Shown: positions 21,648 through 55,952, counted from the stretch's first letter. The stretch is 64,000 bases of DNA from Bacteroidales bacterium (GCA_045132055.1 JBGURP010000055.1:104372-168371); one strand, 5' to 3'. Notes: generated by a model not told the origin, from the letters alone. A program made the numbers and translations.

Positions 21648-21659
21648 AAGACAAAGAAT

Positions 21660-22479: not shown

Positions 22480-22498
22480 TCAAACAGGAAGTCCTGTA

Positions 22499-23137
22499 TT
22501 AGAATGTGTAACCAATCTTAGCCTGAATACCACCGTTGAAGGCGTTAGAACGCTCAAGGTTATAGTGGCCAGTACCATCAAGCACATAGTGATTGATAGG
22601 ATTGCTTCTCAAGAAAAAGCCAGCATTAAAAGAGAGGGCTTTGTATCGGAAACCGGAAGCAATAGTGGCGTATAGGCCGAAACCGGTTTTATTCTTGTCA
22701 GATGCAGGATAATCATAAATTATCCCATCATAATACTGTCCGTTGTAATAATCGTCGTAGTAATCAAAGTTTCCGCTGAAGATGAACGTGGCACCTGCTG
22801 CGATGTTGATAAGGGGTTTGATAGCCTTTCCGCGATCAAAGTAGTGGCGGTAGTTCAAGAACATCGGAACACCGTGACCGGCACATATGTCAACGGAGTA
22901 GCCCAAACCGATACCGATTAGGTCTTGTGTATGGTTGAAGAGAATGCTGTTGATGAGCAAGCCTTCAAAACCGACATTGGTTTGCTGGGTACCGCCTTGA
23001 GAACCGCCACCCAGATATAATCCGTATTCATTGATCATGTTATACGAAATCTTCTTTTCCTGATTTTCTTGAGCAGAAACAGACAAAGTGGCGCACAGTA
23101 AAAGTGCAGTCACAAATAACGATAATACTTTTTTCAT
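22499..23137 (-). CDS. Outer-membrane beta-barrel protein (porin-family, hypothetical)
   Basis: Signal peptide, alternating aromatic/Gly-rich strands, and C-terminal ...KIGYTF ending in Phe. Confidence 0.6.
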   Translation of the reverse strand: MKKVLSLFVTALLLCATLSVSAQENQEKKISYNMINEYGLYLGGGSQGGTQQTNVGFEGLLINSILFNHTQDLIGIGLGYSVDICAGHGVPMFLNYRHYFDRGKAIKPLINIAAGATFIFSGNFDYYDDYYNGQYYDGIIYDYPASDKNKTGFGLYATIASGFRYKALSFNAGFFLRSNPINHYVLDGTGHYNLERSNAFNGGIQAKIGYTF

Positions 23138-23183
23138 TTTTTTTAAAATCTTAGAAAATTTAAAAAATAATGATAATTATGAA

Positions 23184-24218
<1,035 letters not shown>

Positions 24219-24263
24219 TTAATTATAATGCGTTTTTAGGACTGCAAAAATAAGAATATTATT

Positions 24264-33445: not shown

Positions 33446-33707
33446 TACAAAATATTGCACATTTTTCATGTAGGCCTGCCAGACCACGGTAGCAAAGACA
33501 CACATCCTCCGCACGCCTTTAGGTGTGCGACGGGGGCTCTGAAATTGCACATAACATAAACATCTGTCAAGGCATTCATCTTCTTGCTGTTGATGTAGAT
33601 GGTTACCCTGCGGGTACTGCTCTTTGTCATATACTTGCAGTTTGGGCAAAATGGCCGAAATGTCCGGCACAGTCTGGGAATTCAATTATGGATTTGAAAA
33701 TCGGATG

Positions 33708-34331
33708 TTATTCTCTATGGGGTAAACGGTTCGAAGATTTAAAATCCAAAAATATATCTTCAAATTTTGAATCTGGTCTTACAACTTTAAATTTGCTTTT
33801 TTGATATACATACCTCTGTATATCAAAAGTGATAAACAAAGGTATATCAGAAGAATGTGTATCAATATGACTAAACAAATCATCCATATATCGGACACTT
33901 GACACTTCTGATATCCATTCAAATTTTTTAGGTATCAAGATTGTGTTTTTTGTTCTTCGAAAGAACCTTTTAGTGGATTGATCCCCAAAGACGAAACAAT
34001 CATAATTCGAAATCTTAAGGTATCCTACAAGATTTTGAGATTGAAATTCTGTTTCTGTAATCAAATAACAAGCCAATCCTTTGTTGATACACCCGACGAA
34101 TAGGAACTGACACCCATCAAATTTACAGACACTCAACAAAATGACATTTGACTTGTTTGTGCCTTTTGTGTTGAGGACCAAAGAATCTATGAGAGTCTTT
34201 ACTTGTTTGTTTTTTAATATCAAAATTGGTGTTTGTTTTGGAACGGAATCATGAACTGCAGACGCGCTCAAAAACAAAAAACTAAAGAATATAAAAATAA
34301 TAATTTTTGATACATGTTTTAACATTGTCAA
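33708..34331 (-). CDS. Putative immunity protein for orphan toxin cassette 3 (secreted)
   Basis: First ORF downstream of the orphan CT at 34441-35268. Low GC, N-terminal signal peptide, no known domain. Confidence 0.45.
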   Translation of the reverse strand: MTMLKHVSKIIIFIFFSFLFLSASAVHDSVPKQTPILILKNKQVKTLIDSLVLNTKGTNKSNVILLSVCKFDGCQFLFVGCINKGLACYLITETEFQSQNLVGYLKISNYDCFVFGDQSTKRFFRRTKNTILIPKKFEWISEVSSVRYMDDLFSHIDTHSSDIPLFITFDIQRYVYQKSKFKVVRPDSKFEDIFLDFKSSNRLPHRE

Positions 34332-34440
34332 ATAAAATTAGGTAAAGATTGAAACGAGCAGGTAAAATGGAACTGTTGAGAGATTGATGGTTATGATATT
34401 GAAAATAAAGATTGTAAACTTTTTCAGATGGTGTCAAATA

Positions 34441-35268
34441 TTAATTGTTATTAGTTCGTGCCGATTTCTTGCTTCCAAAATAATCGTAAAAAGTACCATT
34501 GGGAAAAGTTTTCTTCTCAAACATATAGTACTGTCTCTCTCCAGCCATATAAATACCTGTTGATACACTATTCTTGATGTGATTTTTTGCCGCATCACTA
34601 TCTGCACGACTTATAAAATCTTTGCCTGTGTGTTTCAAATCATGACTATGATAGGATTCTTTTTCGTTAGTGACTCCAGGCATTCTCACAAAAAGTTCCT
34701 CTCCTGCTGTCCCCACACGAACTTCCTTGTCAGAGGATGAAATTGCCCATTCCACAGATGTGTTCTCGGCAGCAAATTCAAAAAATGAATATCCAACATC
34801 TAAATTTGAAAAGTGCATATAGTTAGTTGTACAGGATTTCATAGAAGATTTCCCGTTTTCATCGAAAATCTCTTGTTCGAACGTATAAGAATCTTTTTTT
34901 TGATTAATACTATTTGCTGGAAACTTTCTACTTGTGGCCTCTCCTTCTGAAGTTGTTGCGTGAACTATATCTATATCGGTTCTGCCATTTTCTCTTTTAG
35001 TTAAAGTTCCATCACGTGCTAAATCCCACTCGTCCTCCCCGTTAGGATCAACAACTTTTATAGGGTTATTACTGCAATAAACATAGTTTGATTGATGAGG
35101 ATATTTCGAAGCCATCGGATCCACGCTCAGCCAAATGCTCAAATCGGAGTTGTAATACCTTGAACCAAAGTAGGAAAAGCCTGTTTCTTTGTCCTTTTCC
35201 TTTGCGGAGAAGGTGAAAGTCCGGGTAGGGGCAAAGGGGCTATATGCTCTGATGACGGGCATGGGCAA
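34441..35268 (-). CDS. Orphan Rhs C-terminal toxin cassette 3 (RHS core-end plus JAB/MPN-like tip)
   Basis: FTFSAKEKDKETGFSYFGSRYYNSDLSIWLSVDP...NPIKVVDPNGE followed by a ~210-aa variable domain containing YHSHD-x10-SRAD (HxH...SxxD). Confidence 0.75.
   Translation of the reverse strand: MPMPVIRAYSPFAPTRTFTFSAKEKDKETGFSYFGSRYYNSDLSIWLSVDPMASKYPHQSNYVYCSNNPIKVVDPNGEDEWDLARDGTLTKRENGRTDIDIVHATTSEGEATSRKFPANSINQKKDSYTFEQEIFDENGKSSMKSCTTNYMHFSNLDVGYSFFEFAAENTSVEWAISSSDKEVRVGTAGEELFVRMPGVTNEKESYHSHDLKHTGKDFISRADSDAAKNHIKNSVSTGIYMAGERQYYMFEKKTFPNGTFYDYFGSKKSARTNNN
35038..35217 (-). repeat. Rhs core-end homology box, copy 1 of 7
   Basis: DNA homologous to 39368-39548. Shares the exact 17-mer TTCACCTTCTCCGCAAA (gene-sense strand). 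This is the most diverged copy. Confidence 0.85.
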
Positions 35269-35281
35269 TTTTTTTTAAAGA

Positions 35282-35872
35282 TTATTTTTCACTACATTTG
35301 TAATGTTTGATAATTCTGTTGGCCTTGTGTTTTTTAACAGGTTTTTCAACCCGAATTGCAGAAGAAATACAATCATTTAAAGCAGCGGTGTCCCTTTCAG
35401 ATGCATATGTATATCCCACATATAAATGTTCAAAACCACTGTTGCTTACTCCATATAAATGATCTGGCTTTTCCAAGTTATATATTAAACAATATTTCCA
35501 AAATGTAGAATCGTGTCCTCCGCATTCATATAAAACACCTGCACTTGGTATATTAATTCTTTCTCCCGATTGATATAAGTGCTGCGTTTTCAGTAAAAAG
35601 TTGTACAAAGTGTCATGTGATTTATATGGATATTCCTCACTAATGTAAAAAATAGCGTCATGATAGGTGGTGAACGTATAACAATCTGAATGTCCCCTTA
35701 TTATGATTTTAATATTGCTGTTAAAAGGCAACTTTACCACATAGGCGGGGGAATCCTTTAATGGTTTGTATATAAATGCCTTACAACCACGTACATGTGA
35801 GTATGTTTCGCAACCATTTAATACAGTCATCACACACAAACAAATCAGACCCAGTTTAGCGCTTTTTTTCAT
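35282..35872 (-). CDS. Putative immunity lipoprotein for orphan toxin cassette 2
   Basis: Immediately downstream of, and overlapping, the CT gene. Start taken at MKKSAKLGLICLCVMTVLNGC (lipobox). Confidence 0.5.
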   Translation of the reverse strand: MKKSAKLGLICLCVMTVLNGCETYSHVRGCKAFIYKPLKDSPAYVVKLPFNSNIKIIIRGHSDCYTFTTYHDAIFYISEEYPYKSHDTLYNFLLKTQHLYQSGERINIPSAGVLYECGGHDSTFWKYCLIYNLEKPDHLYGVSNSGFEHLYVGYTYASERDTAALNDCISSAIRVEKPVKKHKANRIIKHYKCSEK

Positions 35873-36785
35873 AGGATTTGATATCAAAAGGTAAATATGG
35901 ACTTGTACCATCTTCATTTAAAAGCGATGGCCATTCTCCTCCTTGAAAATGTCCATCGTTAGTAAACCCAGACCTATAATGAGTTCTATATCCAAACCCT
36001 AATTCTTTTCGGACAATATTTTCCCTATAACAGGCGACCCATTCGTTTTTCCCTATTTTATCCTCGGGGTTGGGATCTCTCCCAACGGAAGTGAGATCTG
36101 TCCAATTATTATTGTCATCAAAAGCATGGGATAATTCATGAGCCAAATCACATGTTGGATTAAATTCTCCTAAAGGTGTTCCTTCAACGGGCAGCCTTGT
36201 TCCATTAGAATTCCATGTGATAGTATTCGGGTCATTTTTCTCGTATCCACTCGCGCCAGCTTTTATTGTATATTTAGTGTCTGATTCTTGCAAATCAGAA
36301 ATCATCCGGTTCCCCTCTGTGGTTTTATTTATCTTGTCCAATGAATTCTTCGCTTTGTTCACAAAGCGGTTCTGCTGTCGTTCATTAAGACTGCTACCTT
36401 TTAAATGAGTCAGCGTTCCGTCTTTTTCATACCTGTATTGTGATCCTTTCCATTCTATTATTATTTCTTCCCCATTCGGATCCACCAGCTTTATTGGGTT
36501 ATTCGCGCAATACACATACGGACTCAAATTCGGATATTTGTCACTCATCGGGTCAACGCTCAACCAGATGCTCAAGTCGGAGTTGTAGTACCTTGAGTCA
36601 AAGTAAGAAAAGCCTGTCTCGGCATCCTTCTCTTTTGCGGAGAAGGTGAAACGGGAAGATATATTGTTAAGATATTGATTTGCAATACTTTCAGTCACAC
36701 AGGAAGACATACTCCAACATCTGCGATAGGAGTTTCCATTGCAGGCCATTTCTGGGTAATATGACACGAGTGAATCGGACTTCAT
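35856..36785 (-). CDS. Orphan Rhs C-terminal toxin cassette 2 (HExxH metallopeptidase-like tip)
   Basis: Own ATG plus a 45-aa leader, then FTFSAKEKDAETGFSYF...NPIKLVDPNGEE, then a variable domain with AHELSHAFDD. Confidence 0.8.
   Translation of the reverse strand: MKSDSLVSYYPEMACNGNSYRRCWSMSSCVTESIANQYLNNISSRFTFSAKEKDAETGFSYFDSRYYNSDLSIWLSVDPMSDKYPNLSPYVYCANNPIKLVDPNGEEIIIEWKGSQYRYEKDGTLTHLKGSSLNERQQNRFVNKAKNSLDKINKTTEGNRMISDLQESDTKYTIKAGASGYEKNDPNTITWNSNGTRLPVEGTPLGEFNPTCDLAHELSHAFDDNNNWTDLTSVGRDPNPEDKIGKNEWVACYRENIVRKELGFGYRTHYRSGFTNDGHFQGGEWPSLLNEDGTSPYLPFDIKSYEKKR
36470..36650 (-). repeat. Rhs core-end homology box, copy 2 of 7
   Basis: Shares the exact 26-mer TTCACCTTCTCCGCAAAAGAGAAGGA (gene-sense) with the main rhs gene. 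Confidence 0.9.
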
Positions 36786-36789
36786 TCGG

Positions 36790-36797
36790 CAAAGTTA
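36790..36797 (-). promoter_or_regulatory. Cassette promoter box (TAACTTTG on the minus strand), 4 nt upstream of the orphan 2 ATG
   Basis: The same GTAACTTTGCC box with the same 4-nt spacing to the ATG occurs at 52510 and 55529. Confidence 0.55.
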
Positions 36798-36846
36798 CGA
36801 AATATTCAAATACAGTTAATTATTTAACTGACAAGGGGGCATATCA

Positions 36847-37473
36847 TTATTTTTTTCGTGATTTGCATATTGACAAACAACCATTGTCTTCAGATGGCAA
36901 TATCTGAACATCTATAAATTCATATAATTTTTTTTGAGTTGTGTTACTTGTCAAAATCGTTTCGTCGGTGATTTTTATCCATAAATACATTTCAATAAAT
37001 GGCATATAATCAACTATGGATTTCCCTATTTCAGTCTTACATTGCGCCTCCCAAAATTGTATTCTACTTTTTCTGTCCATACGTAAAAAAATCACATCAT
37101 GTGCTGGATACCTAATACTATCCACATAAACTATTGTTGTTAATGGTGCTATCCGAAAAAACGATGGCAACCAACAGCAGTTTTTAGCATCAACACTATC
37201 ATCGCCCAACACATAAGAATCATTTGTCAATGGGTGTAATGCATGTTTATAAGGTTCGTTGTAAATTTTCTGATATTCTCGAATACAGCACATCGCCGTA
37301 ATACGCAGCATGCAAGGTTTGTCAATTGGCAGATATAGCGTGTCAGTTCTGTTAAAATCCCTGTTGGTATATATTTTTTCAATGCTATTATATTTTCTGT
37401 TCTGAGAAAATATAATATTAACATTAGACAACAAAAATAATACTAAGAAAATTCTAATAACCATTGATTTCAT
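36847..37473 (-). CDS. Putative immunity protein for orphan toxin cassette 1 (secreted)
   Basis: Starts 8 nt after the CT gene stop. Has a signal peptide (MKSMVIRIFLVLFLLSNVNIIFSQ) and low GC. Confidence 0.5.
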   Translation of the reverse strand: MKSMVIRIFLVLFLLSNVNIIFSQNRKYNSIEKIYTNRDFNRTDTLYLPIDKPCMLRITAMCCIREYQKIYNEPYKHALHPLTNDSYVLGDDSVDAKNCCWLPSFFRIAPLTTIVYVDSIRYPAHDVIFLRMDRKSRIQFWEAQCKTEIGKSIVDYMPFIEMYLWIKITDETILTSNTTQKKLYEFIDVQILPSEDNGCLSICKSRKK

Positions 37474-37481
37474 AATAGCAT

Positions 37482-38360
37482 TTATTTGTAAAAAGACTTG
37501 ATAAGAGATGGTGTGTGTGCTCCTTTATCAAACCCCTCATATAATCTCGTGGAATTGGCAATCGATTTGCTTTTAAAACCATCTCGTAGGGTATTGAATT
37601 TTTTAGTGAAATTAGTTTCATTAATACGGCGACATTGAAAATCAGCAAAAGCTTCACTATAGGGATCTCCTTCTTTGGTACCGCCTTTAGGCCCCAACAC
37701 CAATCCGCCTCCAACTGTCAACATTGAAAAAAGATTAGCCTCCACCTCATTATGTATGGAAGCGCCTCCTTGTCCTTTCAATTCTTGATAACCATGAAAT
37801 AGTTCATGAGCCAGATAATCAGCATTATCTAATTGTCCATTCATATACATGGTTCCACCGTTGTTTCCATCTTTCTGAAATCGTCCAGTCCCATCATTTT
37901 TAAGGGATTCATTGGTAAATGTGAAAGTGGGTGAATCCTTCCCCGTCATTTCATCAATTACTGATTTACCGGCTTCTTTCCCATATATTTTATCAAGATT
38001 GTTCCATGCTGCCTGAACATTCTTGTCTGTGCTGTTGCATTGTTGCCCAGGAGTGAAAGTGTGTTCTCCATCCTCGCCTTGTATTACTATTGTTTCCCCA
38101 TTCGGATCCACCAGCTTAATGGGGTTGTTGGCACAATAGGTATATGGCGACAAATTCGGATATTTGTCACTCATCGGATCGACGCTCAGCCAGATGGACA
38201 AATCGGAGCTGTAATACCTTGAACCAAAGTAAGAAAAGCCGGTTTCGGAGTCCTTTTCTTTTGCGGAGAAGGTGAAACTTGCTGAAAACAAGGTTTTTAT
38301 GGGGTAATATGTTGATACTGGGGTGTTCATACGCCGTGAAATTACAAAATAATTGAACAT
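37482..38360 (-). CDS. Orphan Rhs C-terminal toxin cassette 1 (HExxH metallopeptidase-like tip)
   Basis: FTFSAKEKDSETGFSYFGSRYYSSDLSIWLSVDPMSDKYPNLSPYTYCANNPIKLVDPNGE, then a variable domain with AHELFHGYQ. The true start may be the internal Met at 38330. Confidence 0.8.
   Translation of the reverse strand: MFNYFVISRRMNTPVSTYYPIKTLFSASFTFSAKEKDSETGFSYFGSRYYSSDLSIWLSVDPMSDKYPNLSPYTYCANNPIKLVDPNGETIVIQGEDGEHTFTPGQQCNSTDKNVQAAWNNLDKIYGKEAGKSVIDEMTGKDSPTFTFTNESLKNDGTGRFQKDGNNGGTMYMNGQLDNADYLAHELFHGYQELKGQGGASIHNEVEANLFSMLTVGGGLVLGPKGGTKEGDPYSEAFADFQCRRINETNFTKKFNTLRDGFKSKSIANSTRLYEGFDKGAHTPSLIKSFYK
38096..38277 (-). repeat. Rhs core-end homology box, copy 3 of 7
   Basis: Contains a 43-nt exact direct match to the main rhs box (ggatatttgtcactcatcggatcgacgctcagccagatggaca). 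Confidence 0.9.
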
Positions 38361-38449
38361 GGCACAAGTTCCTTGCTGTTGTGCGGCGTGGGAGGTTTAA
38401 ATAATTGTAACAACCATAAGATATTGTCCATTTTTGAGAATGACTTCTA

Positions 38450-38800
38450 TCATAGAACATGTGGTGAAATATTTATTACAATATTTTTTCCCTGTATAAT
38501 AGAATCGGGTGAATAATGAAGAATCAATTGAGAGGTATACCAATCTAAATAAAATGAAGTGTCTGTGGAGTTCTGGAATTTTTTAGAAATCATGTATGAA
38601 TCCCCGTCTTGAAGGTCTATTTGAAAACTCCCTAACACATCTCCTTGGATAGTAACGTCTATCCCAGTAATATTCAAATCTTCATCAAAACATATCGTAT
38701 CTGTCACTTCTGAACAAATAGTATCTATGAGAAATGACTGGGATGAATCATTCTCACAAGATGCTAATGCTAAAGAAGATATAAGCAAAACGATTGCCAT
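38450..38800 (-). CDS. Putative cognate immunity lipoprotein of the resident Rhs toxin tip
   Basis: The ATG lies 1 nt after the rhs stop (TAG-A-ATG). MAIVLLISSLALASC is a lipobox. 116 aa. Confidence 0.55.
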   Translation of the reverse strand: MAIVLLISSLALASCENDSSQSFLIDTICSEVTDTICFDEDLNITGIDVTIQGDVLGSFQIDLQDGDSYMISKKFQNSTDTSFYLDWYTSQLILHYSPDSIIQGKNIVINISPHVL

Positions 38801-38801
38801 T

Positions 38802-41800
38802 CTAATAATCCGATGAGATTTGTACACCATCTTGTATGCTATTTGAAATTTTACGAATAGTTTCTTTATTTCTTATTTCTGATTGGTTAATAGGTTCTCC
38901 ATTAGATTTTTTTATGACATCCTTGCCCGTATTATCTTTTTCGAGAATTATTAAATCCCCATTGTCAATACGTTGTTTTATAATCTCTCCCAATTGTTTT
39001 GGAGAAGCATTTGGATTCTGTTTTCCAATTTCAATTCCGACATCATTATTATGAATATCCATAACTAAATCAGTCTCTATTTCATCAGCAGGAGTACTAT
39101 ATTCATGCGCGTCCGACCATTTTCGAGTCATTTTTTCGCCAACACTTTGAACATTTAGCGCTTGCCACATAGCATGCCTGTAGGCATCCGTTTTTCCTCC
39201 CTTTCCTCCTTCACCCGAAAATGCTTTTTTAGCCATCGAAGAGGCAAGTTTAGCATTCGAGTTTACTTGTATAGCTGTTGGAAATCTAATATCATATTTT
39301 AATATATGTTTCTCCTGTGGATTGAGTGATTTAATTCTATTATACAGAGGTGGTTTTGTTAAATCTTCCCCGTTCGGGTCCACCAACTTTATCGGGTTGT
39401 TAGCACAATAAGTATAAGGCGAAAGAGAGGGATATTTGTCACTCATCGGATCGACGCTCAGCCAGATGGACAGGTCGGAGCTGTAATACCTTGAGCCAAA
39501 GTAAGAATAGCCAGTTTCTGTGTCCTTCTCTTTTGCGGAGAAGGTGAAACGGGCGGCATAATCGGTTATCCGCTGGTTCACGAAGTCCTCGCCCCAAGGC
39601 ATATAATGCAGATGTTGCACGGCAGAACCGTCAGTATAAGTTATCCAAGAAGAACTTCCGAGATGGTCGGTGTGGTACCAGTAGCAATCCTTTTCCTCTT
39701 CCCTTATATCCTTCCATTCGTAAAGGAAATTCAGCAAAGATTCCTGCACTTCAGCCTGTGCATCAAGGCATTCCATCACATCATCGAAAAGCATTATGGA
39801 ATGTTCCTTGTGTGCAACAAACATTTCAGGATTGTCATTTCGGTCCAAGTATTTCAATCCGCCACCGCCTATTCTGCTGGCAATCCGCTCATTCTCCGCA
39901 TAATAATGCTTGGTATAGCCTTTGGGATTGGTTACCAGATACGGTGAGGCATATAGAGTTGGCCTCTTCATGTAATAGTAGTAACGCCACTCTCCATTTC
40001 GGTTCTGCCGGGCAAAATCACCGGTCAGTTTATATATCCTGTCACCGTTGGCGTCGTACTGGTAATATGACAGGAAACCATCGTCCTTAACACCCAGCAG
40101 CCTGTTCTGCTCGTCCCAGCAGAGACGACGGTCGGTATTGTTCAGGGTATTGATGTGTTGCGTCATGTTGCCCTTCACATCCCACTTGAAATATTGTTGC
40201 GGTCCGTTGTCTATGTATGCTAGAGTGTTCGGCTGGCTATTATTGTCATAATGATAGTCATTATGACAATGGACAGGGGCTTGGTTGTTGGAGAAGGGTG
40301 TTTGCGTGTAAGTGTCCGCATCGAGATGTTTTTTCACAATGCGACCATTCGGTTTATATTCCATGTCAAGTTCGTAGTCCACGGGATGATTTCCGTTCCA
40401 TATACCATTCGAGTAATCCAACCTGTACATGTCATCGTATTGATACTCGTTAATGTAAGTGCCTCCCAAGCCGTTGGAGAGCATTCCGGCATTGTTGGCA
40501 ATCATGGTTATGTTGCTCACCGAATCGTATCTGTAGTCAATGTCCTGCATGGGTTCATTTGCAGAAGTCACCGAATAAAGGTTTCTGAGTCGTTGCAGGG
40601 TGTCATACTTGTAGAACGTCTTCGTCCCGTTCCCGTAGTACATCGCAGCTTTCAGTTCAAACTCGTTGTAACGGACGCTGTCGAGATATTTGTAAGGGAA
40701 ACCATTCTTGACACCCGTTATGCTGTTGAGCATACCGCCGCTGTTATAGCCATAACAAACTATCTCGCCATCGGGATAAACCATGCTGTCAATACGGTTC
40801 CAACTGTCGTAAACGAATCTCATATCAAATGTGTAAGGCTGGTTTTCATACGGCAGCGTAAATGTCCGTGTGTTTTCTGTCACTTCTCCCAATTTGCCGT
40901 AAGAAAATGTCTGCCAGCCGGATGCGTCCTCCTGCGATATAACCTTGCCTACTGCATTTCTGACGGCATCGACAGAGGTTCCGTAATTGTAATGCACATT
41001 GTATTCAGGATAATGGGAGCAAAAGATGTCTGAAAGCTGGTTGAAGTAGTATTTATACTCAAGATTTTCTCCCATCTCGTTTGTATGCCTTGTCAGATTC
41101 CCGGCCGGATCGTACTCATAGTAGTCGTTCCCTGCATCCGGATGTTTGCGATGAATCATCTGTCCGAACATGTCGTAGTCGTAAAAGGTCTCGAATCCGT
41201 CAGGGTCGGTGCTTTTCTTCAACTGTCCCAAGCAGTCGTAATCGAAAAAGGTTGTCGTGCCGTATGGGGCCACCTGCATGAGCTGCTGGCCGAGCGTGCC
41301 TTTCAGCACCTGCACGCTGTTATTCATGGCATCCGTAGTGGTCGTGGAAAACACTGTCTTGCCGCCTGTGTTGCCAAAGCCATATTCCATTCTGGTCACC
41401 TCATGGGTGGGAAGCTCCACACGAATCTGTCTGTCCAAAATATCATATTTGATGGAGGTTATTGTGGCAGGGGCAAAGTATGGATTGTACAAGGCGTATA
41501 GTGCAGTGTCCTCAACAAAAGGATGGTATTGCTCCACCGTCCTGCCGAAGCAGTCGTATGTGACACGTCCAGTCACCAGGCTCACCTCTTGCCCGTCAAT
41601 CTCCGCATCTTTCTTTGTCTGCAGCAGGCGGCCTAATCCATCTGTAATAACTGTGGTGGCGATGTCATCGGTGGGATGCTGCGGGTCGTAATGGAATGTG
41701 CGGGCATAACTTTGGATGGTACCGATATTGAAAATGTCAGTGGTGCCATAATTTTTCGGGTGGTATTCCATTTTTATGGTATAAGGCTTGGACGCGTCAA

Positions 41801-47843: not shown

Positions 47844-47895
47844 AGATATTTTATTTCTTAATTCCTTAGTCCCTTGATTTCACAACTGTCGTCTG

Positions 47896-49476: not shown

Positions 49477-49502
49477 GGCGGAATATATTTCTTGGATGAT
49501 TG

Positions 49503-49510
49503 CAAAGATA
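49503..49510 (-). promoter_or_regulatory. -7 promoter box (TATCTTTG on the minus strand) for the T9SS-protein/rhs operon
   Basis: The reverse complement of caaagata matches TAnnTTTG, 26 nt upstream of the ATG at 49476. Confidence 0.5.
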
Positions 49511-49540
49511 GCATTTTTTTAATCCGGTTGCATTTTTTTG

Positions 49541-50665
49541 TCAGAAACGGATTTTGTTCGCCGCCAGTATCTTTCTGGCATCCGTCACGTGCGTGTAGCG
49601 GTCAGTCATGGAGATTGAGTGGTGCCCGGCAAGGTCCTTGACGTACTTCGGGGGCATTCCCGATTCGAGCATCTCGGTGATGCCCGTGTCCTTGAGGGAG
49701 TAGAAATGGAACGTGGAGGGCAGGGAGAGGTGTTTCAGCATCCTGTGCCAGGCCTCGAACAGGTTTCGGGTGGTGTAGGACTTCGGGCCGGGTTTGAAAT
49801 GCCGGGAGAATATGAAAGTATGGGGAGAGAGCGTCTCCGCCCGCAGTTTCCTGAAGTGTCCGAGCACATCGTCGGACAGGGCTATCACACGTTCCTCATG
49901 GTTCTTCGACACGTTTGGCGGTATCCTGAGCATCCCCTCGTCAAAGTCTATGTCCCGCAGTTGGAGCATGAGTATCTCCTTGGGCCGCACCAGATGCTTG
50001 AAGCAGAGTTGCATAATGGCTATGTATTCCGTCATGCCTCTTTTCGTGAAGTAGTCGAGGATTTTTTTGCGCTCATGTTTTGGGATGGTTGTCCTATGTT
50101 TTTTTTCTTTCCTCTTGCCTTTGAACGGTTCGAAGGGGTTGGATGGCAGAAGACCGTCGCTGACAAAGGACCGGAACATGCTCTTCAGGAACTGGAGCAT
50201 GTTGTTGTAGGCGTACGCGCTTCTTCCGCCTTTGCCGTACTCCTCCAGCAGTTCGGCGGCCTGCTTGCCCGTGAAGTAGGCACAAAGCCAGTCGGACAGG
50301 CCTTTCTTCTCGCACCATGTGAGAAAGAACGCAAGCTTCGACTTGTAGCCCCGTGTCGAGTCCTTCCGGAGGGTTTCCTGTTTTTTGCGGTAGAAGTCTT
50401 CGGCGGCCTGCTCCACGGTTTGCGGTCTTCTGTTCGACTCCTCTTCCCCCGTCAGAGGGTTCCAGCCCGCGTAGAGCCGTCTGTTGGTCTCCGCGCACAG
50501 CAGGCGCGCATAGCGCAAGCGCTCGCGGCGGTCACGGATGCGGTTGCAGCGGATCCTTCTGCGCTTGAGCCTTCCGCTGACAGGGTCGAGTACGTGGTAG
50601 CTGACATAGACCTCCTTGTTGGAGGACACTTGTGCCGGGATGAAGTCGATGAATGGTGTTGTCAT
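49541..50665 (-). CDS. Tyrosine-type site-specific recombinase/integrase
   Basis: 374 aa. The C-terminal catalytic region has LRPKEIL (Arg), HFYSLKDTG and LAGHHSISMTDRYTHV (His/Arg/Tyr box). Confidence 0.9.
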   Translation of the reverse strand: MTTPFIDFIPAQVSSNKEVYVSYHVLDPVSGRLKRRRIRCNRIRDRRERLRYARLLCAETNRRLYAGWNPLTGEEESNRRPQTVEQAAEDFYRKKQETLRKDSTRGYKSKLAFFLTWCEKKGLSDWLCAYFTGKQAAELLEEYGKGGRSAYAYNNMLQFLKSMFRSFVSDGLLPSNPFEPFKGKRKEKKHRTTIPKHERKKILDYFTKRGMTEYIAIMQLCFKHLVRPKEILMLQLRDIDFDEGMLRIPPNVSKNHEERVIALSDDVLGHFRKLRAETLSPHTFIFSRHFKPGPKSYTTRNLFEAWHRMLKHLSLPSTFHFYSLKDTGITEMLESGMPPKYVKDLAGHHSISMTDRYTHVTDARKILAANKIRF

Positions 50666-50919
50666 GATGGTGAATTGAAAAGGTTAGGAATGCTGCCTTG
50701 CAAGCATCTTGCTTGCTGGAATAAATATGGTTATAATCGTATTTTGGTTTAAAACACATTATGGATAAATCCTTCGCGAAACCCTCCGGTGCATTGCCGT
50801 GGTGCAGAACTGGCGCAGCGGCACAGGTTCGCAAGCGGTTGTGGATGCGGCGTTCAGAAAATACATGGTGCAACATCGCGGCGCAAATATGGCCATTTTT
50901 TTCTTTTGCGAAAAAATCT

Positions 50920-50927
50920 TATTTTTG
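50920..50927 (+). promoter_or_regulatory. -7 promoter box (TATTTTTG) upstream of orphan cassette 4
   Basis: TAnnTTTG match 19 nt upstream of the ATG at 50947. Confidence 0.5.
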
Positions 50928-50946
50928 CCACGATAAGTTGTTGCGT

Positions 50947-51762
50947 ATGAATCAGCCTGTTACATATAGTAAAACATTTCTGCCCGACACGCTTGCGGAG
51001 ATTTTCACCTTCTCCGCAAAAGAGAAGGACGCAGAAACCGGCTATTCTTACTTTGGCTCAAGGTATTACAGCAGCGATCTGAGTATCTGGCTCAGCGTCG
51101 ATCCGCAGGCTTCGAAATATCCTTCTTTGAGTCCGTACGTGTATTGCGCGAATAACCCGATAAAGTTGATGGATCCGAATGGGGAAGATTATGAAACCAT
51201 TATAAATAAAGATAATAAAACCATAACCATTAAAGCAATATATTATGCAAAAGATTCCGATAAGAAAAACCTCCAAAAAGGACTTGATGCTTGGAATAGC
51301 CAATCCGGCAAATACACTTTCACTATAGAAAATGGTGAAAATGCAGGAACTTATACCATAAACTTTGAACTAACCATGGCAGAGAGTGACGGGACAAGTA
51401 GCCCTATCGATGGCATTTCGAATTCTTTCGAGATGGTTTCAGATAACATTGGTGGGCGAGGTCTAACTAACGACGGCCGTACTATTAAAGTAAACAATAA
51501 CGCTCCGGACAGGACGATTATTCACGAAATAGGTCATACATTAGGAAATGGAGAATTTAATCGCGGAGTAATGCTACAAGGAGGGAATAGTGACAAAATC
51601 TTAAAGGAAAACATATCAACTACGCTTAATCAAGCAGGCTTTCATAGTCTGGGTAATTTCTGTGGCTCTCAAATCACAGATCCACCATCACAATCATGCA
51701 ACACTTTTTGTAATCAAACCACTAATGAACCCATATATGGGATAATTAACAGAAAAAGATGA
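50947..51762 (+). CDS. Orphan Rhs C-terminal toxin cassette 4 (HExxH metallopeptidase-like tip)
   Basis: MNQPVTYSKTFLPDTLAEI leader, then FTFSAKEKDAETGYSYFGSRYYSSDLSIWLSVDPQASKYP...NPIKLMDPNGED, then a variable domain with IIHEIGHTLG. The upstream part of the track ORF is GC-rich non-coding-like sequence. Confidence 0.8.
   Translation: MNQPVTYSKTFLPDTLAEIFTFSAKEKDAETGYSYFGSRYYSSDLSIWLSVDPQASKYPSLSPYVYCANNPIKLMDPNGEDYETIINKDNKTITIKAIYYAKDSDKKNLQKGLDAWNSQSGKYTFTIENGENAGTYTINFELTMAESDGTSSPIDGISNSFEMVSDNIGGRGLTNDGRTIKVNNNAPDRTIIHEIGHTLGNGEFNRGVMLQGGNSDKILKENISTTLNQAGFHSLGNFCGSQITDPPSQSCNTFCNQTTNEPIYGIINRKR
51004..51186 (+). repeat. Rhs core-end homology box, copy 5 of 7 (inverted relative to the main gene)
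   Basis: Starts with the exact 26-mer TTCACCTTCTCCGCAAAAGAGAAGGA. Confidence 0.9.
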
Positions 51763-52454
51763 GGACTCTTGTTTCAGTTTGCCAAATTGTATTTTTTTCC
51801 TTCTTGTTATATTCTTGCACAACAACAGCACATTATCAGAAATATAACAAAGCAATTGAAGAATTGACAAAACAGTATGCAAATAATATAGACACTGCGT
51901 CCTCAGTCATTCAAGTAACTGGAGTGGTCAAAGTCGATTCTTTCTTCATCCATTATAATAGAAATATTGATCCTGACAAACTATGGAAATACAATATTTT
52001 CAAAACAAAATCTGATGTGCTTTACTTCAGTACAACCCCATGCGATGTCATTGATTGCGGAGCCCACCAAAAACTCTTTAAAGAATGTATTTTTGATTCA
52101 ACATCTTTTGTCATTATTTCCTCTAGTGACTTTTTAAGAAAACATATTATTCCATTCGTTAAAGACACCATGCTGAAAGAGAATTTAAGAGTTATTGTTG
52201 ACAATGATGACATACTACCTATAGGTGTCGTAAATTATAAAAGAATTTTTTTTAAGCACAATAAATATGCTTGTGATGTGGCCTTCTATAAAACAAATTG
52301 TTTTTTGCGCGTACAAATGCCTGTATGGTTTTTCAATTTGACATACTCTAAACATAGTTGCCCACCCATATTTTATTTTTTAGGAGAAGAAGAATACTAT
52401 GACCTATATTTGAATGTGATTGTGCCCTTACCAGCGGATATTCAAGACATCTAA
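51759..52454 (+). CDS. Putative immunity lipoprotein for cassette 4
   Basis: The ATGA overlap with the toxin stop suggests translational coupling. Lipobox FLLYSC. Confidence 0.5.
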   Translation: MRTLVSVCQIVFFSFLLYSCTTTAHYQKYNKAIEELTKQYANNIDTASSVIQVTGVVKVDSFFIHYNRNIDPDKLWKYNIFKTKSDVLYFSTTPCDVIDCGAHQKLFKECIFDSTSFVIISSSDFLRKHIIPFVKDTMLKENLRVIVDNDDILPIGVVNYKRIFFKHNKYACDVAFYKTNCFLRVQMPVWFFNLTYSKHSCPPIFYFLGEEEYYDLYLNVIVPLPADIQDI

Positions 52455-52509
52455 AAATACAATTTTGTATCTTCCACATATTGCTAATTAACCTTAATTA
52501 ATTATTTTG

Positions 52510-52517
52510 TAACTTTG
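52510..52517 (+). promoter_or_regulatory. Cassette promoter box (TAACTTTG), 4 nt upstream of the orphan 5 ATG
   Basis: The TTTTGTAACTTTGCAGC-ATG context is shared with 36790-36797 (minus strand) and 55529-55536. Confidence 0.55.
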
Positions 52518-52521
52518 CAGC

Positions 52522-53388
52522 ATGAATAATGGTAGATTTGTAGCATATTATTCAGCAACAGTCTGCGATGGGAATCCATATTGCAAAAGCAAGAGTATGT
52601 CTTTGGATATAGCAGGAACTTTCACCTTCTCCGCAAAAGAGAAAGATGCCGAAACCGGCTTTTCTTACTTTGGCTCAAGATATTACAGCTCCGACCTATC
52701 CATCTGGCTGAGCGTCGATCCGATGAGTGACAAATATCCCTCACTGAGTCCGTATGCTTACTGTGCGAATAACCCAATAAAGTTGGTGGATCCGAATGGG
52801 GAAGAGATTGGAGATTTTTATGATCAATGGGGAAGAAAAATCGGTTCAGATGGACGTGCTGATGATAATGTTTTCATTGTAAGTGATCAAGCTTCTCAAA
52901 ACAAGATAAAAGAGAATAGGCGAAATCACGTAAATACCAATTCAGCCGATGTAAAAGTTGACGTGACTACCACGTATAATGTCTTAAGTGAGGCTTCAGA
53001 TGTTTATGAAAGAACTGTAAAAAACGGAGGATATAACGAAGAAGCATCAGCATTACCTACAGATGGAGGATCCGCTGATTGGGAAAGAAAATCTGGAGTT
53101 AATGAACATAGTGTTGAAGTCCCAATACCCCAAGGAGATGTCCTTATTCATTCTCACCCGTTAAAAAAAAGGAATCCATGTGATTACACATCCCCGAAAG
53201 TGATAAGTGATAAAGATAAATCACATTTTGAAAAATTTAAATTAAATATTGTAGTCGGAAATGACGGAGGTAACTGTAGCGGTGGAGTATGGTCTGGCCG
53301 CAAACCAACAGCATCTTTTTATGACTCGAGCAGCAAAAATCTCATAAATTTACTTTTCGATGTGGTGAAGAAAATAGTCAACCGATAA
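52522..53388 (+). CDS. Orphan Rhs C-terminal toxin cassette 5 (JAB/MPN-like tip)
   Basis: 33-aa leader, then FTFSAKEKDAETGFSYFGSRYYSSDLSIWLSVDPMSDKYPSLSPYAYCANNPIKLVDPNGEE, then a variable domain with IHSHP...SDKD. Confidence 0.8.
   Translation: MNNGRFVAYYSATVCDGNPYCKSKSMSLDIAGTFTFSAKEKDAETGFSYFGSRYYSSDLSIWLSVDPMSDKYPSLSPYAYCANNPIKLVDPNGEEIGDFYDQWGRKIGSDGRADDNVFIVSDQASQNKIKENRRNHVNTNSADVKVDVTTTYNVLSEASDVYERTVKNGGYNEEASALPTDGGSADWERKSGVNEHSVEVPIPQGDVLIHSHPLKKRNPCDYTSPKVISDKDKSHFEKFKLNIVVGNDGGNCSGGVWSGRKPTASFYDSSSKNLINLLFDVVKKIVNR
52621..52806 (+). repeat. Rhs core-end homology box, copy 6 of 7 (inverted relative to the main gene)
   Basis: Positions 52699-52742 are the perfect reverse complement of 39427-39470 (44 bp). 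Confidence 0.92.
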
Positions 53389-53399
53389 TTAGTACCATT

Positions 53400-53990
53400 A
53401 TGTTGAACAGTAATAAGATCTTTCAAAAAATATTTGTATTATTGTTTTTATTTTGGCCATTTACAATTATTTGCCAAAATAACAATCCAAATGATCCGTT
53501 AGACACGTACAGTGCTCCTTCATTCGCCTATTTAACCGTAATAGATGGGAAAATTCCATATTCTGTTCTTTCAAAACTATCGTTTAAGCACAATAAGCTA
53601 AACGACACTATAATATATAATTGCTATTATATCAATAACAGACATTATTCAGAAAATCTGATGATGCTGGATTCCATACCCGATTCAGTCACAGTTTCGA
53701 TAGATGTTTTTTTTGAAGAACCAATAGGATATAATAAAGCTAAAATGCATCATTATCATGATGAAATGCCTCTTGGTAGACTTAAACTTGTACAGATATT
53801 ATCAATCACCAATTTCCGTCACAAACAATACTATATGCATTATGTTTTTGATCCACCATTAAGAACATATCCTTTGTATGAAAGACGCTTTGGCAATAAG
53901 AATAAATTTTATTCGAGAGTGTTCTCATGTTTTTATCCGTATTCATATAACAAATGGTCAAAAGGAGGAAGAACAAAACCGTCATATTAA
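53400..53990 (+). CDS. Putative immunity protein for cassette 5 (secreted)
   Basis: Starts 11 nt after the toxin stop and has a signal peptide (FVLLFLFWPFTIICQ). Confidence 0.5.
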   Translation: MLNSNKIFQKIFVLLFLFWPFTIICQNNNPNDPLDTYSAPSFAYLTVIDGKIPYSVLSKLSFKHNKLNDTIIYNCYYINNRHYSENLMMLDSIPDSVTVSIDVFFEEPIGYNKAKMHHYHDEMPLGRLKLVQILSITNFRHKQYYMHYVFDPPLRTYPLYERRFGNKNKFYSRVFSCFYPYSYNKWSKGGRTKPSY

Positions 53991-54068
53991 GGTGAAAGTT
54001 TAATACTGATAAATCGTGGTCATCAACTCGACTCATTAAATTCTGTATCATTACTTTATTTAATCCTT

Positions 54069-54899
54069 ATGACTGCTGTCGCCATGTATAATCACATGAT
54101 TCTTGCCAATAGTTTCACCTTCTCCGCAAAAGAGAAGGATACCGAGACGGGGTATTCCTACTTTGGTGCGCGGTATTACTCTTCTGATTTATCTATTTGG
54201 CTGAGTGTGGATCCGATGAGTGACAAATATCCGTCACTTTCGCCTTATACTTACTGTGCGAACAACCCGATAAAACTTACTGATCCTGACGGAAGATGGA
54301 TTCCAGGACTGGATGACGAAGGGAATGTGACATACACGGCAGAGAAAGGTGACAGTTATGACACTTTCATCAAACAGTTCGACTGTAGAGATGCTGATGG
54401 AAATAATCGGGGCAGAGATATTTTTTCGAATGCTGGTTTAAAAAAAGATGGAAGTGAAATAAAAGAAGGTTCCGTAATAAAAGGAGATGCTGTTAAACAA
54501 GTGACAGGCAATGATGTGTTGAAAGGAAATTGGAATAACATGACGGATGACCAAAAAGCTTCTCAAATAAAATTCGCTCTTGATTATGGAGAAAAACACA
54601 AGACTACGATTGGAAATTCCTATGCGATAGATCTGAATGAATTCATAAATGATTTTGGCTCATCTTATAGCGGTATAAGTTTGAACAATGTGCAAATCCC
54701 CGACAAAAATACAGGAACAGCGATTGTCAACATGAGGCTTTGGCCAAAGGAAGGATTGACAGATAGTCGAGGTCGAATACCCATACGCTGGAGGTCACAA
54801 TCTGGAGGAGAAAATTATAATACCAAGTATTATTATAGTGCTAAAAATCCAAATGCGCGGAATCCTTTGCCGGCAATTGGAATTACTCGTTGTAAATAA
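54069..54899 (+). CDS. Orphan Rhs C-terminal toxin cassette 6 (tip with a LysM-like segment)
   Basis: FTFSAKEKDTETGYSYFGARYYSSDLSIWLSVDPMSDKYPSLSPYTYCANNPIKLTDPDG, then a variable domain beginning with YTAEKGDSYDTFIKQF...LKKDGSEIKEGSVI (LysM-like pattern). Confidence 0.75.
   Translation: MTAVAMYNHMILANSFTFSAKEKDTETGYSYFGARYYSSDLSIWLSVDPMSDKYPSLSPYTYCANNPIKLTDPDGRWIPGLDDEGNVTYTAEKGDSYDTFIKQFDCRDADGNNRGRDIFSNAGLKKDGSEIKEGSVIKGDAVKQVTGNDVLKGNWNNMTDDQKASQIKFALDYGEKHKTTIGNSYAIDLNEFINDFGSSYSGISLNNVQIPDKNTGTAIVNMRLWPKEGLTDSRGRIPIRWRSQSGGENYNTKYYYSAKNPNARNPLPAIGITRCK
54114..54292 (+). repeat. Rhs core-end homology box, copy 7 of 7 (inverted relative to the main gene)
   Basis: Starts with the exact 26-mer TTCACCTTCTCCGCAAAAGAGAAGGA. 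Confidence 0.9.
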
Positions 54900-54907
54900 A
54901 TCCCATT

Positions 54908-55507
54908 ATGAAATTCACCATATTATTACTATTCATATCTTTATCAGTTTTTGTATCTGCTCAACAAACAAAAATTGACACGATTAACATATCAATCGTA
55001 AAATCTAATTATCCGTTAATAGCAAAAACGGAAGATTTACATTTTATTCCAGATGTTCGACATTGGCATAGTTGTTTTAATGTGAAAGGTCAACTTTACC
55101 CTTCGCACAGTTCAGATTCTTTTTACGTCTTCTATGCAAATCAAATATCTGCAGACAAATATAAATTATCCTATCTTGAAACGGGCTCTGATGCGCGATT
55201 GGAATACATCTGGTTGAAAAAGAATAAAAAATTCTGGATGGATTATCGCGGATTAATTTTACGAAATAATACATCTTTAAGTGATGTCAATATTTTTTTT
55301 AAATATGACGAGAGTGAAGCAGAATACGGCATAGGCCCTTTAATCATAGGAAATAGATGCAAAAATATCCCACAGTACATTCTCTCTTTCAGTACAGGCG
55401 AACCAAATAACACTAAAATCACTTTGATTTTTGACAGGAAAAAACGCCTTAAAATCATACATATGGACTACTATCATCCATCTAATTTAATATTAAGACG
55501 CCAATGA
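54908..55507 (+). CDS. Putative immunity protein for cassette 6 (secreted)
   Basis: Starts 8 nt after the toxin stop and has a signal peptide (MKFTILLLFISLSVFVSAQQ). Confidence 0.5.
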   Translation: MKFTILLLFISLSVFVSAQQTKIDTINISIVKSNYPLIAKTEDLHFIPDVRHWHSCFNVKGQLYPSHSSDSFYVFYANQISADKYKLSYLETGSDARLEYIWLKKNKKFWMDYRGLILRNNTSLSDVNIFFKYDESEAEYGIGPLIIGNRCKNIPQYILSFSTGEPNNTKITLIFDRKKRLKIIHMDYYHPSNLILRRQ

Positions 55508-55528
55508 TTGTATCAAATGGATTTTTTG

Positions 55529-55536
55529 TAACTTTG
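55529..55536 (+). promoter_or_regulatory. Cassette promoter box (TAACTTTG), 4 nt upstream of the truncated leader ORF
   Basis: TTTTTTGTAACTTTGCCAC-ATG, the same architecture as at 52510 and 36790. Confidence 0.5.
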
Positions 55537-55540
55537 CCAC

Positions 55541-55720
55541 ATGAAAAGCTGTTGGTTAGAAGCATATTATCCGGCAAAGGCACACTGTGAGAAGCCAGCT
55601 CGCAGGTGGTATGATATGCTGTTTTTATATATGGAAAGTGATGTGAGTCAATTCTTTAGTAAATCATCTATCCCTTTCAGCTTCAAAGTGATTGCTGATA
55701 GTTTCGCCCCAGGTCTCTGA
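55541..55720 (+). pseudogene. Truncated orphan-cassette leader (cassette remnant ending at the homology-box position)
   Basis: The 59-aa ORF MKSCWLEAYYPAKAHCEKPARRWYDM...SSIPFSFKVIAD aligns with the orphan 2 leader MKSDSLVSYYPEMACNGNSYRRCWSM...SSRFTFSAKEKD. It loses homology exactly where the box should begin. Confidence 0.6.
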
Positions 55721-55727
55721 GAGAATG

Positions 55728-55877
55728 TCAGCAATAGTATAAACAATTGTCAATTATCAGCCATCTGTCATGCGACGGCTTTAACCAAACGTGTGTTTCT
55801 ATTGTCCTGCCATTTGCCGCGGCATTGATGCTGTTCACTCTGTAACCCACAGAAAGAATTAAATCCAAATTGAAATT
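55728..55877 (-). pseudogene. RhuM-family virulence protein gene fragment
   Basis: Minus-strand translation NFNLDLILSVGYRVNS matches the conserved RhuM motif (YNLDxIISVGYRVNS). Flanking sequence is frameshifted or unrelated. Confidence 0.4.
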
Positions 55878-55952
55878 TACAAGGTGTACGGTTGTTTGCC
55901 CTCATTACCCATATATTCCAAAATGGAATATGTGCCAATCATTGCCAATGCA

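Follow-up and report, generated by a model that had tools for sequence, protein, structure and literature searches.

The stretch of Bacteroidales bacterium DNA considered here (GCA_045132055.1 JBGURP010000055.1:104372-168371; 64,000 nucleotides (nt), the whole of which is referred to as the window) contains a 22-kb insert with one full-length gene of the Rhs toxin family and six intact orphan open reading frames (ORFs), each consisting of an Rhs core-end and a C-terminal tip. The orphans are divided equally between the minus and the plus strand, three on each, and a small ORF follows each of the seven tips. The center of the insert is a block composed of the Rhs shell, a 526-amino acid (aa) protein with a type IX secretion system (T9SS) sorting tail, and a tyrosine recombinase; an 18-nt site occurs four times on the minus strand to the left of this block and three times on the plus strand to its right, and all of the cassettes in the window point away from it. 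The present report describes this arrangement and its relatives, and argues that it probably serves to exchange the toxic end of the Rhs protein. The features are listed below in their order along the window. All of the 18-nt sites are exact matches, the orphan cassettes were recognized by the core-end profile TIGR03696, and the putative immunity genes are ORFs without a Pfam hit.

33464..55952, whole insert; blastn matches of three relatives (L088, L089 and L091) to the window end at 33463 and 55953
33708..34331, minus strand, putative immunity gene of L3, 207 aa, signal peptide (by eye)
34441..35268, minus strand, orphan cassette L3, leader, core-end and JAB-like tip (TIGR03696 59.7 bits; Toxin-JAB1 weak, below cutoff)
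35201..35218, minus strand, 18-nt site of L3
35282..35917, minus strand, putative immunity gene of L2, lipobox after an internal Met
35856..36785, minus strand, orphan cassette L2, Peptidase_M91 tip (also by Pfam); its leader bears TAACTTTG
36634..36651, minus strand, 18-nt site of L2
36847..37473, minus strand, putative immunity gene of L1, 208 aa, signal peptide
37482..38360, minus strand, orphan cassette L1, HExxH tip with weak M91 similarity
38260..38277, minus strand, 18-nt site of L1
38450..38830, minus strand, putative immunity gene for the tip expressed at present, 126 aa, lipobox
38802..47843, minus strand, full-length Rhs gene, 3013 aa, with signal peptide, SpvB, FG-GAP, TcdB_toxin_midN, RHS repeats, core-end and DUF6973 tip
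39532..39549, minus strand, 18-nt site in the expressed gene, codons FTFSAK, aa 2766-2771
47896..49476, minus strand, T9SS-tail partner protein, 526 aa, Por_Secre_tail match; homologues are annotated DUF8202
49541..50665, minus strand, tyrosine recombinase, 374 aa, Phage_integrase match at 5e-25, conserved synteny
50666..51002, plus strand, recombinase-proximal leader, with TATTTTTG (TAnnTTTG, a -7-like box) at 50920-50927
50761..51762, plus strand, orphan cassette R1, HEIGH zinc-peptidase-like tip (M57 weak, below cutoff)
51003..51020, plus strand, 18-nt site of R1
51759..52454, plus strand, putative immunity gene of R1, 231 aa, lipobox
52522..53388, plus strand, orphan cassette R2, HSHP..S..D tip, JAB-like by eye; its leader bears TAACTTTG
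52620..52637, plus strand, 18-nt site of R2
53400..53990, plus strand, putative immunity gene of R2, 196 aa
54069..54899, plus strand, orphan cassette R3, tip of no assigned type; its core-end ends in DPDGR
54113..54130, plus strand, 18-nt site of R3
54908..55507, plus strand, putative immunity gene of R3, 199 aa, signal peptide
55518..55608, plus strand, terminal leader remnant, TAACTTTG plus MKSCWLEAYYP..., with no site after it in the window

Most of this inventory had been anticipated by a first-pass annotation of the same DNA. The ORF map, TIGR03696 and Pfam bear out its 3013-aa Rhs gene with resident tip and downstream small ORF, its six orphans with a core-end, a differing tip and a small ORF after each, their division into three minus-strand and three plus-strand cassettes with the recombinase gene between, and the flanking core genes, which are rluB-like on the left (PseudoU_synth_2 plus S4) and SufT-like on the right (FeS_assembly_P, followed by YitT). 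The comparison of this rluB-like/SufT-like interval that it had recommended turned up relatives without the insert, from which the borders at 33464 and 55952 follow; in these relatives, whose flanks are 88-92% identical to those of the window, the interval holds only a 1.4-kb filler with a DUF559 gene and a hypothetical gene. The description of the whole as a "22-kb low-GC island" is accurate for the cassette arrays (33-38% GC), but not for the Rhs body (43-52%) or for the DUF8202 and recombinase genes (57-58%), which lie above the flanks.

The seven core-ends scored 58.6-64.8 bits with TIGR03696 (cutoff 32.5), so that none of the cassettes lacks the profile. Their tips, 187-203 aa long, all differ and are unrelated to one another: Peptidase_M91 scored above the Pfam threshold, the matches to Toxin-JAB1 and M57 were weak and below it, and three further orphan tips have no assigned family. 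The ORFs that follow the tips (126-231 aa) have an N-terminal signal peptide or lipobox, as judged by eye, in all seven cases. Had they been housekeeping genes, the toxin-immunity assignment of the first-pass annotation would have suffered, but they belong to no Pfam family and they co-vary with the tips across loci, as seen for L1 (tip 87%, ORF 85% identical in L032; L-numbers denote contigs or loci from other samples, and P-numbers homologous proteins), R2 (83% and 86%, L036) and R3 (52% and 41%, L043). With more distant tips the partner ORFs were unrecognisable as related, and no immunity homologue without its tip was found across the compared loci. The signal peptides of all seven immunity candidates suggest that the toxins act in the periplasm of the target cell.

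The DNA that encodes the core-ends constitutes a repeat of ~190 nt, 68-89% identical among its four minus-strand and three plus-strand copies. The first 18 nt of this repeat, TTTCACCTTCTCCGCAAA, are the same in 7/7 copies; there is no similarity 5' of them, and synonymous differences begin right after them. With up to two mismatches allowed, TTTCACCTTCTCCGCAAA matched seven times in the window against 0.01 expected, and nowhere outside the insert. In order that sampling not be biased toward the site, 87 unique core-end repeats were gathered by means of a downstream protein motif, RYY.....IWLSVDP. Among these, CACCTTCTCCGC was exact in 78% and present with at most one mismatch in 94%, the third positions of the first four site codons were conserved at 98, 87, 97 and 95% as compared to a mean of 70% for the remaining codons, and conservation immediately 5' of the site was that of the background. 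Every cassette is in frame with the site. A perfect 7-nt dyad, CCTTCTC-N7-GAGAAGG, occurs in four of the seven window copies; we do not claim it as a binding architecture, as the right arm in the P0034 family is GAACGCG.

The scores of the recombinase fall far below the cutoffs for the XerC/XerD equivalogs (73.6 against 335 for TIGR02224 and 50.4 against 330 for TIGR02225) and for integron integrases (37.1 against 265 for TIGR02249 and 19.8 against 435 for PRK15417). Its box II (residues 320-327) reads HFYSLKDT and is invariant in 27 homologues. Its best match of solved structure is a 401-aa XerC-like sequence, PDB 9i5v chain 14, which bears the name 'Ribosome-associated translation inhibitor RaiA', a label that looks misassigned. 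A total of 552 homologues were detected at E ≤ 1e-20, most of them on very short contigs, and the exact recombinase of the window was found elsewhere on one 2.2-kb contig. No alternative arrangement of the window's own cassettes was found, the species being rare in the collections, and a single-sequence scan of genome contigs with the recombinase returned only distant, unrelated recombinases (21-38% identity). An antisense ORF of 377 aa (49619-50752, plus strand) overlaps the recombinase gene, and the gene caller, which in L024 and L025 preferred the equivalent ORF (366 aa, no Pfam) to the recombinase, illustrates how automated annotation can hide it.

Where longer contigs were available, those with a 62-75% identical recombinase had the layout of the window, i.e., a divergent array of small ORFs, followed by the recombinase, the DUF8202/T9SS-tail protein and a ~3000-aa SpvB/FG-GAP/TcdB/RHS protein. 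More generally, recombinase homologues of 60-94% identity sit in the same arrangement, loci reached through Rhs homologues exhibit the same layout together with the downstream array, and a scan of metagenome contigs with a recombinase alignment added 48 loci. Upstream of the recombinase start codon, by ~280-355 nt, there is an outward-facing site of the YYWCACSTTCTCCGCMAAR form in 27 of the 28 metagenome loci that could be tested (recombinase at least 60% identical and enough upstream DNA); no such adjacent site was present at five checked loci with a recombinase of at most 43% identity (L063-L067). The DUF8202 protein lies directly upstream of Rhs, between it and the recombinase, in every related locus for which we had a gene table. 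By its synteny, then, the recombinase is a conserved component of the module; the first-pass annotation had correctly placed it between the two orphan sets, but had treated it as a landmark. The same annotation considered the two-orientation layout odd, whereas it proves to be the rule of the family: across 42 loci, 78/78 upstream cassette starts are on the opposite strand and 27/27 downstream starts on the same strand, or 105/105 outward, which is what inversions between oppositely oriented sites would produce and preserve.

Among the relatives, an identical 3060-aa Rhs protein is encoded by L027, a contig of 332 kb, and by L028, which is 41 kb long and comes from another sample. Positions 1-4204 of L028 correspond to 25774-21572 of L027 in reverse (99.6%), 6691-20042 to 6691-20042 directly (99.2%), and 19859-24505 to 6871-2225 in reverse (99.98%), and thus the block that consists of leader, recombinase, DUF8202, Rhs, tip, immunity gene and leader is inverted relative to both flanks. 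A hybrid junction in L028 joins the cJ2 leader of L027, the 18-mer and the c1 cassette of L027, the last leader-specific base being -1 and the first cassette-specific base +19. The k141_... names of the records suggest MEGAHIT contigs at k = 141, for which a false join would need ~140 identical bases, and the repeats of the two parents share only short stretches, so that the junction is unlikely to be a misassembly. Each orientation has been seen in at least two independent contigs: Rhs faces PdxA/IF2/NusA in L027 and L030 and the acetate-kinase side in L028, L031 and L032/L033. In L032, as compared to L027, cassette c2 is missing, and the junction consists of the c2 leader, the 18-mer and cassette c3, with the switch at +19; a 38-nt identical tract farther downstream was not used. 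Judged by this junction, the change is a deletion between direct sites.

Other relatives exhibit changes of the tip itself. P0192, with a JAB-type tip, and P0243, with an M91 tip, agree in 99.9% of their last 1000 shell residues; after the site only the core-end is common to them (86%), and at the DNA level identity extends across the site and is lost 9 nt later. Single clusters of Rhs proteins at 90% identity hold five or more tips, with the sequence constant before (F/Y)TFSAK and varying right after it. Five contigs from different samples with an identical recombinase (P0034) are 100% identical over the 317 nt upstream, up to ...TACACCTTCTCCGC, past which they split into at least three different cassettes; one of the contigs ends exactly there. 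In strain L082, ~98.4% identical to the window, R1 and R3 are present and R2 is replaced by another cassette, bounded on the left by the shared leader and the site, and on the right by a different leader, after which identity resumes from the R3 site on. We tried and rejected the idea that this replacement is L2 of the window moved across, since the two are only 77% identical and must be paralogues despite similar first residues. L082 also has a further site and cassette after its counterpart of the terminal leader at 55518-55608. Assemblies from Logan contain the R1 cassette as single-cassette contigs of 1.5-1.7 kb (L083-L087), and the putative immunity protein of R1 has exact copies on six other contigs, five of them with the single cassette. 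The 3013-aa Rhs protein is itself identical to P0255, from a contig of a Bacteroidales metagenome-assembled genome at NCBI.

Every junction that could be mapped lies at the outer 5' edge of the ~190-nt homology, no farther in than its first 15-27 nt, and two are bounded on both sides to exactly 18 nt. As the junctions are at the edge of the homology, with none available on one side, they point to site-specific rather than RecA-type recombination. The alternative would be an ordinary Rhs locus in which the orphans are relics of displaced tips, the exchanges are RecA-dependent and occur between the ~190-nt repeats, and the recombinase is an unrelated neighbor. It has precedents: in enterobacteria, arrays of orphans and their activation through RecA are well documented (PMC3967940; Jackson 2009, as cited), and the displaced tips of a >9-kb rhs gene of the SpvB/TcdB type in Ornithobacterium hominis were read as ordinary displacement (PMC6421346); also, repeats that are 68-89% identical would suffice for occasional homologous exchange. 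Nevertheless, by our own arithmetic the joint chance of the six bounded junctions is ~1e-6 if crossovers were uniform over 190 nt, the L032 event ignored a longer identical tract, the orphans share one sharp 5' boundary where displacement relics should be ragged, the synonymous positions of the site are unusually conserved, and the recombinase and its adjacent site are conserved together. We regard this explanation as unlikely.

Less probable still is that the arrays are mainly a defensive island of the rAID-1 or polyimmunity type that gathers orphan immunity genes for protection from neighbors' toxins and came to lie beside Rhs by chance, with a recombinase that captures cassettes and does not switch toxins. 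The resemblance is real: rAID-1 clusters combine a tyrosine recombinase with co-oriented small genes of low GC and repeated intergenic motifs (PMC12247911), polyimmunity loci beside XerC/D-type recombinases were noted in 2012, and with both systems (Ross et al. 2019; Zhang et al. 2012) the window has in common its occurrence in Bacteroidales, the tyrosine recombinase, low-GC immunity-type genes (33-38% GC in the arrays), repeated junctions and strain variation. The rAID-1 array has been described as defensive and co-oriented with its recombinase, to which no role is assigned (Ross et al. 2019), and it is defined by a recombinase at least 44% identical to BF9343_RS08045 and at least two co-oriented downstream genes of no more than 41% GC. 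In the window, the genes co-oriented with and downstream of the recombinase are those for DUF8202 (57% GC) and Rhs (43-52% GC) and not the immunity array, and no Bacteroides-named protein is among the best 120 homologues of the recombinase (down to 38% identity). Unlike rAID-1 as described, the cassettes here retain not just an immunity gene but in each case also an intact toxin tip, in frame with the site, the repeat lies inside coding sequence, the full-length toxin gene also carries the site, and near-identical shells bear different tips that switch at the site. A defensive role of the silent cassettes would be compatible with a tip-switching locus, without replacing that explanation.

Some variant loci do approach the rAID-1 layout. 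In L043 (10001-20558), L039 and L060, the recombinase is directly followed by an N-truncated Rhs of 750-780 aa (RHS repeats, core-end and tip), and there are four or more co-oriented cassettes but neither DUF8202 nor a full shell. These loci favor the rAID-type explanation to some extent, and by their layout hint at a link between the two kinds of array.

The last alternative, by which the insert of 22 kb would be an integrative mobile element with the recombinase simply as its integrase, has in its favor the absence of the insert from the rluB/FeS_assembly_P interval of relatives, the different chromosomal places of the module in other lineages and the mosaic composition, but is very improbable given that the borders have no tRNA or direct-repeat att pair, the recombinase lies mid-insert and not at an end, the associated sites are internal, seven in number and in both orientations, and the rearrangements observed, which are inversions and cassette changes, remain internal and leave the flanks as they were.

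We therefore return to the exchange of Rhs tips and think it likely that the locus is a site-specific recombination system, or shufflon, for the toxic end of the Rhs protein, with an integron-like turnover of its cassettes. The attributes of a shufflon can be recognized in the exact 18-mers in both orientations (four minus, three plus), the 3' coding segments that serve as alternatives for one constant 5' part of the gene, the tyrosine recombinase encoded at the locus (dedicated to it by synteny and adjacent site, with predicted catalysis) and, in relatives, the inversion between L027 and L028 and the occurrence of both orientations among five contigs. The locus has a constant core of 11.4 kb (39550-51002), with the recombinase, the T9SS-tail partner and a ~2765-aa Rhs shell, between two outward arrays of cassettes, each of which consists of the 18-nt site, a 63-aa Rhs core-end, a tip of ~190 aa, a putative secreted immunity protein and a leader. 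The recombinase would exchange strands within T(T/C)(T/A)CACCTTCTCCGC, which encodes (F/Y)TFSA. Recombination between the site of the expressed gene and an oppositely oriented site would flip the core and fuse the shell to a new tip; as the window now stands, 39532-39549 might recombine with the site at 51003, 52620 or 54113, thereby fusing the shell to R1, R2 or R3, respectively, while the old tip would be parked behind the recombinase-proximal leader. All seven tips would be within reach in at most two such steps. Recombination between two inverted orphan sites would flip the whole gene unchanged, and that between direct sites would delete a cassette, presumably as a circle, and might so permit an integron-like exchange.

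Several observations weigh against this interpretation. The window is known in one configuration, and the rearrangements were seen between strains that are 99.2-99.98% identical rather than within a clone. More than one event separates L027 from L028, which have different cassettes on one flank. In no case was a tip that had been removed from the expressed gene found among the orphans of that strain's opposite array, and tips of other members of the shell cluster, sought in L027 and L028 as orphans that would close a reciprocal swap, were not present there. The role of the recombinase is argued from conserved synteny only, and its chemistry would be atypical, with Y-S-L-K-D in box II where XerC/D have H-x-L-R-H; when aligned by HMMER to XerC-like structures, the recombinase shows Y322, K325 and D326 at the positions of the canonical H, R and H. 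In L031, no recombinase lies within 10 kb upstream, although the sites are present and differences bounded by them are seen. Among the stretches common to the repeats, the 18-mer is one of the longest, and it could bias homologous recombination toward itself. Finally, the contigs L025, L026 and L029 cross the main-gene site and stop at two neighboring sites, a pattern that a strain mixture fits as well as active flipping.

The latter three contigs, each of 13 kb, extend between the recombinase-side site and the orphan site that comes first after the expressed tip. Such contig breaks at sites, which could reflect strain mixture or population heterogeneity, leave most recombinase homologues on contigs of only 1.4-5 kb, and recombination at the sites explains the fragmentation of these loci in metagenome assemblies. 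L031 retains a LytTR gene (6502-7569) but has no opposite array.

The proposed tip shufflon can be set against the systems whose features it combines. R64 sfx sites, like the site in the window, are conserved on one side only. With the switching inversions as a group (R64 Rci/sfx pilV, the hsdS shufflons of type I restriction-modification systems including that of B. fragilis, the tail fibres of phages Mu (Gin) and P1 (Cin), and B. fragilis SusC/SusD), the locus shares a constant 5' part, alternative 3' segments, short sites in both orientations and an adjacent dedicated recombinase, but it carries a toxin-immunity module as cargo, where they have an adhesin tip or specificity subunit, its invertible segment of ~11.4 kb holds the recombinase and the whole shell gene, and it undergoes direct-site deletions as well. 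In the systematic survey of programmed inversions that alter genes, neither toxins nor Rhs are mentioned (PMC9881135). Integrons also pair a tyrosine recombinase with promoterless or weakly promoted cassettes that are bounded by sites and lost between direct sites; the window differs from them in having an 18-nt coding site instead of an attC hairpin, arrays on both sides, in-frame protein fusion and an IntI model score of 37 against 265 bits. The Rhs orphan arrays of E. coli, Salmonella, Serratia and O. hominis have the RHS shell, TIGR03696 core-end, ~200-aa tip, immunity gene and orphan modules in common with the window (PMC3967940; PMC6421346), but their orphans are downstream, in one orientation, with ragged 5' ends and RecA-type activation, in contrast to the two outward arrays, the common 18-nt start, the dedicated recombinase and the exchange at the site. 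The TcB-TcC cocoon of Tc toxins likewise has SpvB, FG-GAP, TcdB_midN, an RHS shell, an autoproteolytic core-end and a variable tip; the window has no TcA-like gene, its conserved partner is the T9SS-tail protein, and its immunity genes imply bacterial targets.

Rhs orphan arrays, shufflons and recombinase-associated immunity arrays are each already known. What appears to be new is the combination of a dedicated recombinase, a site inside the Rhs coding sequence and two outward arrays; in the literature searched, outside of which most subscription journals lie, no description of recombinase-mediated switching of Rhs tips was found. Orphan tips adjoin Rhs, CdiA and MafB genes across bacteria, and their purpose and mobilisation have been argued mostly from rare RecA-dependent events. 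For one large group of gut and rumen Bacteroidales, the present locus family provides an answer that is concrete and can be tested. Should it be the recombinase that drives the exchanges, the identity of the toxin would be phase-variable, with effects on strain competition and kin discrimination, the locus could provide a working model for the recombinases found beside immunity arrays, and the pair of site and recombinase would be a natural tool for in-frame swapping of protein domains. We offer more tentatively, as somewhat short of an even chance, the broader proposal that rumen and gut Bacteroidales practice active, recombinase-driven toxin switching, in which flips of an 11-kb core between two arrays re-arm one giant Rhs shell, with integron-like excision and capture of cassettes that are shared between species, and that N-truncated derivatives of the module are the origin or close kin of rAID.

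An exchange of cassettes between species is implied by the M91 tip. It shows 95.6% identity between P0121, which has a shell 91% identical to the window's, and P0243, in the shell cluster of P0192, which is 48% identical to the window's; in L024-L026 and L031-L033 this tip is accompanied by a 168-aa Sel1-repeat ORF as its immunity candidate. A 95.6% identical M91 plus Sel1 cassette on shells that are only ~48% identical to each other is the basis for considering that cassettes are transferred.

Some of the leaders carry Bacteroidetes-type -7 boxes, and both arrays are therefore probably transcribed: in ~1.4 kb of leader there are five TAnnTTTG boxes as compared to ~0.7 expected from the window-wide density of 0.49 per kb per strand. 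Besides the recombinase-proximal leader, those of L2 and R2 and the terminal leader have such boxes. The boxes suggest that parked arrays are expressed and that immunity to the whole repertoire is maintained. In the recombinase-proximal leader, a short ORF begins at the ATG at 50947 (MNQPVTYSKTFLPDTLAEI) and shares the reading frame of the first cassette; by eye, the P0034 family has a comparable leader peptide. Another leader type is present in three copies (36704-36822, 52505-52619 and 55518-55608), with TTTGTAACTTTGC, an ATG and a short ORF of the form M.S..L..YYP..C; two of the copies precede L2 and R2, and the third closes the right array.

The 3013-aa protein has its RHS-associated core domain at aa 2747-2825 and RHS/YD repeats that match PF05593 and TIGR01643. 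Linkage to type VI secretion systems (T6SS) through PAAR or VgrG is not required of all Rhs proteins. Profile searches found neither domain on the 3013-aa protein, which in this respect departs from the best-studied, T6SS-delivered Rhs toxins and has instead a signal peptide and a TcB-like N-terminal half. Its C-terminus is occupied by the toxin, so that it can have no T9SS tail of its own, and the adjacent DUF8202/T9SS-tail protein suggests itself as a T9SS-linked partner for the export or display of Rhs. PDB and Pfam searches with this partner gave no function beyond the sorting domain. In one sub-family (L018-L022), the interval between the recombinase and DUF8202 contains, ~180 nt after the recombinase, an ORF of 149 aa and, on the opposite strand, a gene for a 354-aa regulator with a LytTR domain.

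Outside the insert, the filler of the island-free relative L088 (8695-9821) encodes a DUF559 endonuclease-like protein and a 205-aa hypothetical protein, neither of which is related to any cassette in the window; kinship of the 205-aa gene, which lies beside rluB, with the immunity ORF of L3 was considered and rejected. The rluB-like pseudouridine synthase of the window (32237-33412, minus strand) has an N-terminal extension of ~140 aa before its S4 domain that is repetitive and rich in K, R, D and E (…PKRRF…DRPRKR…).

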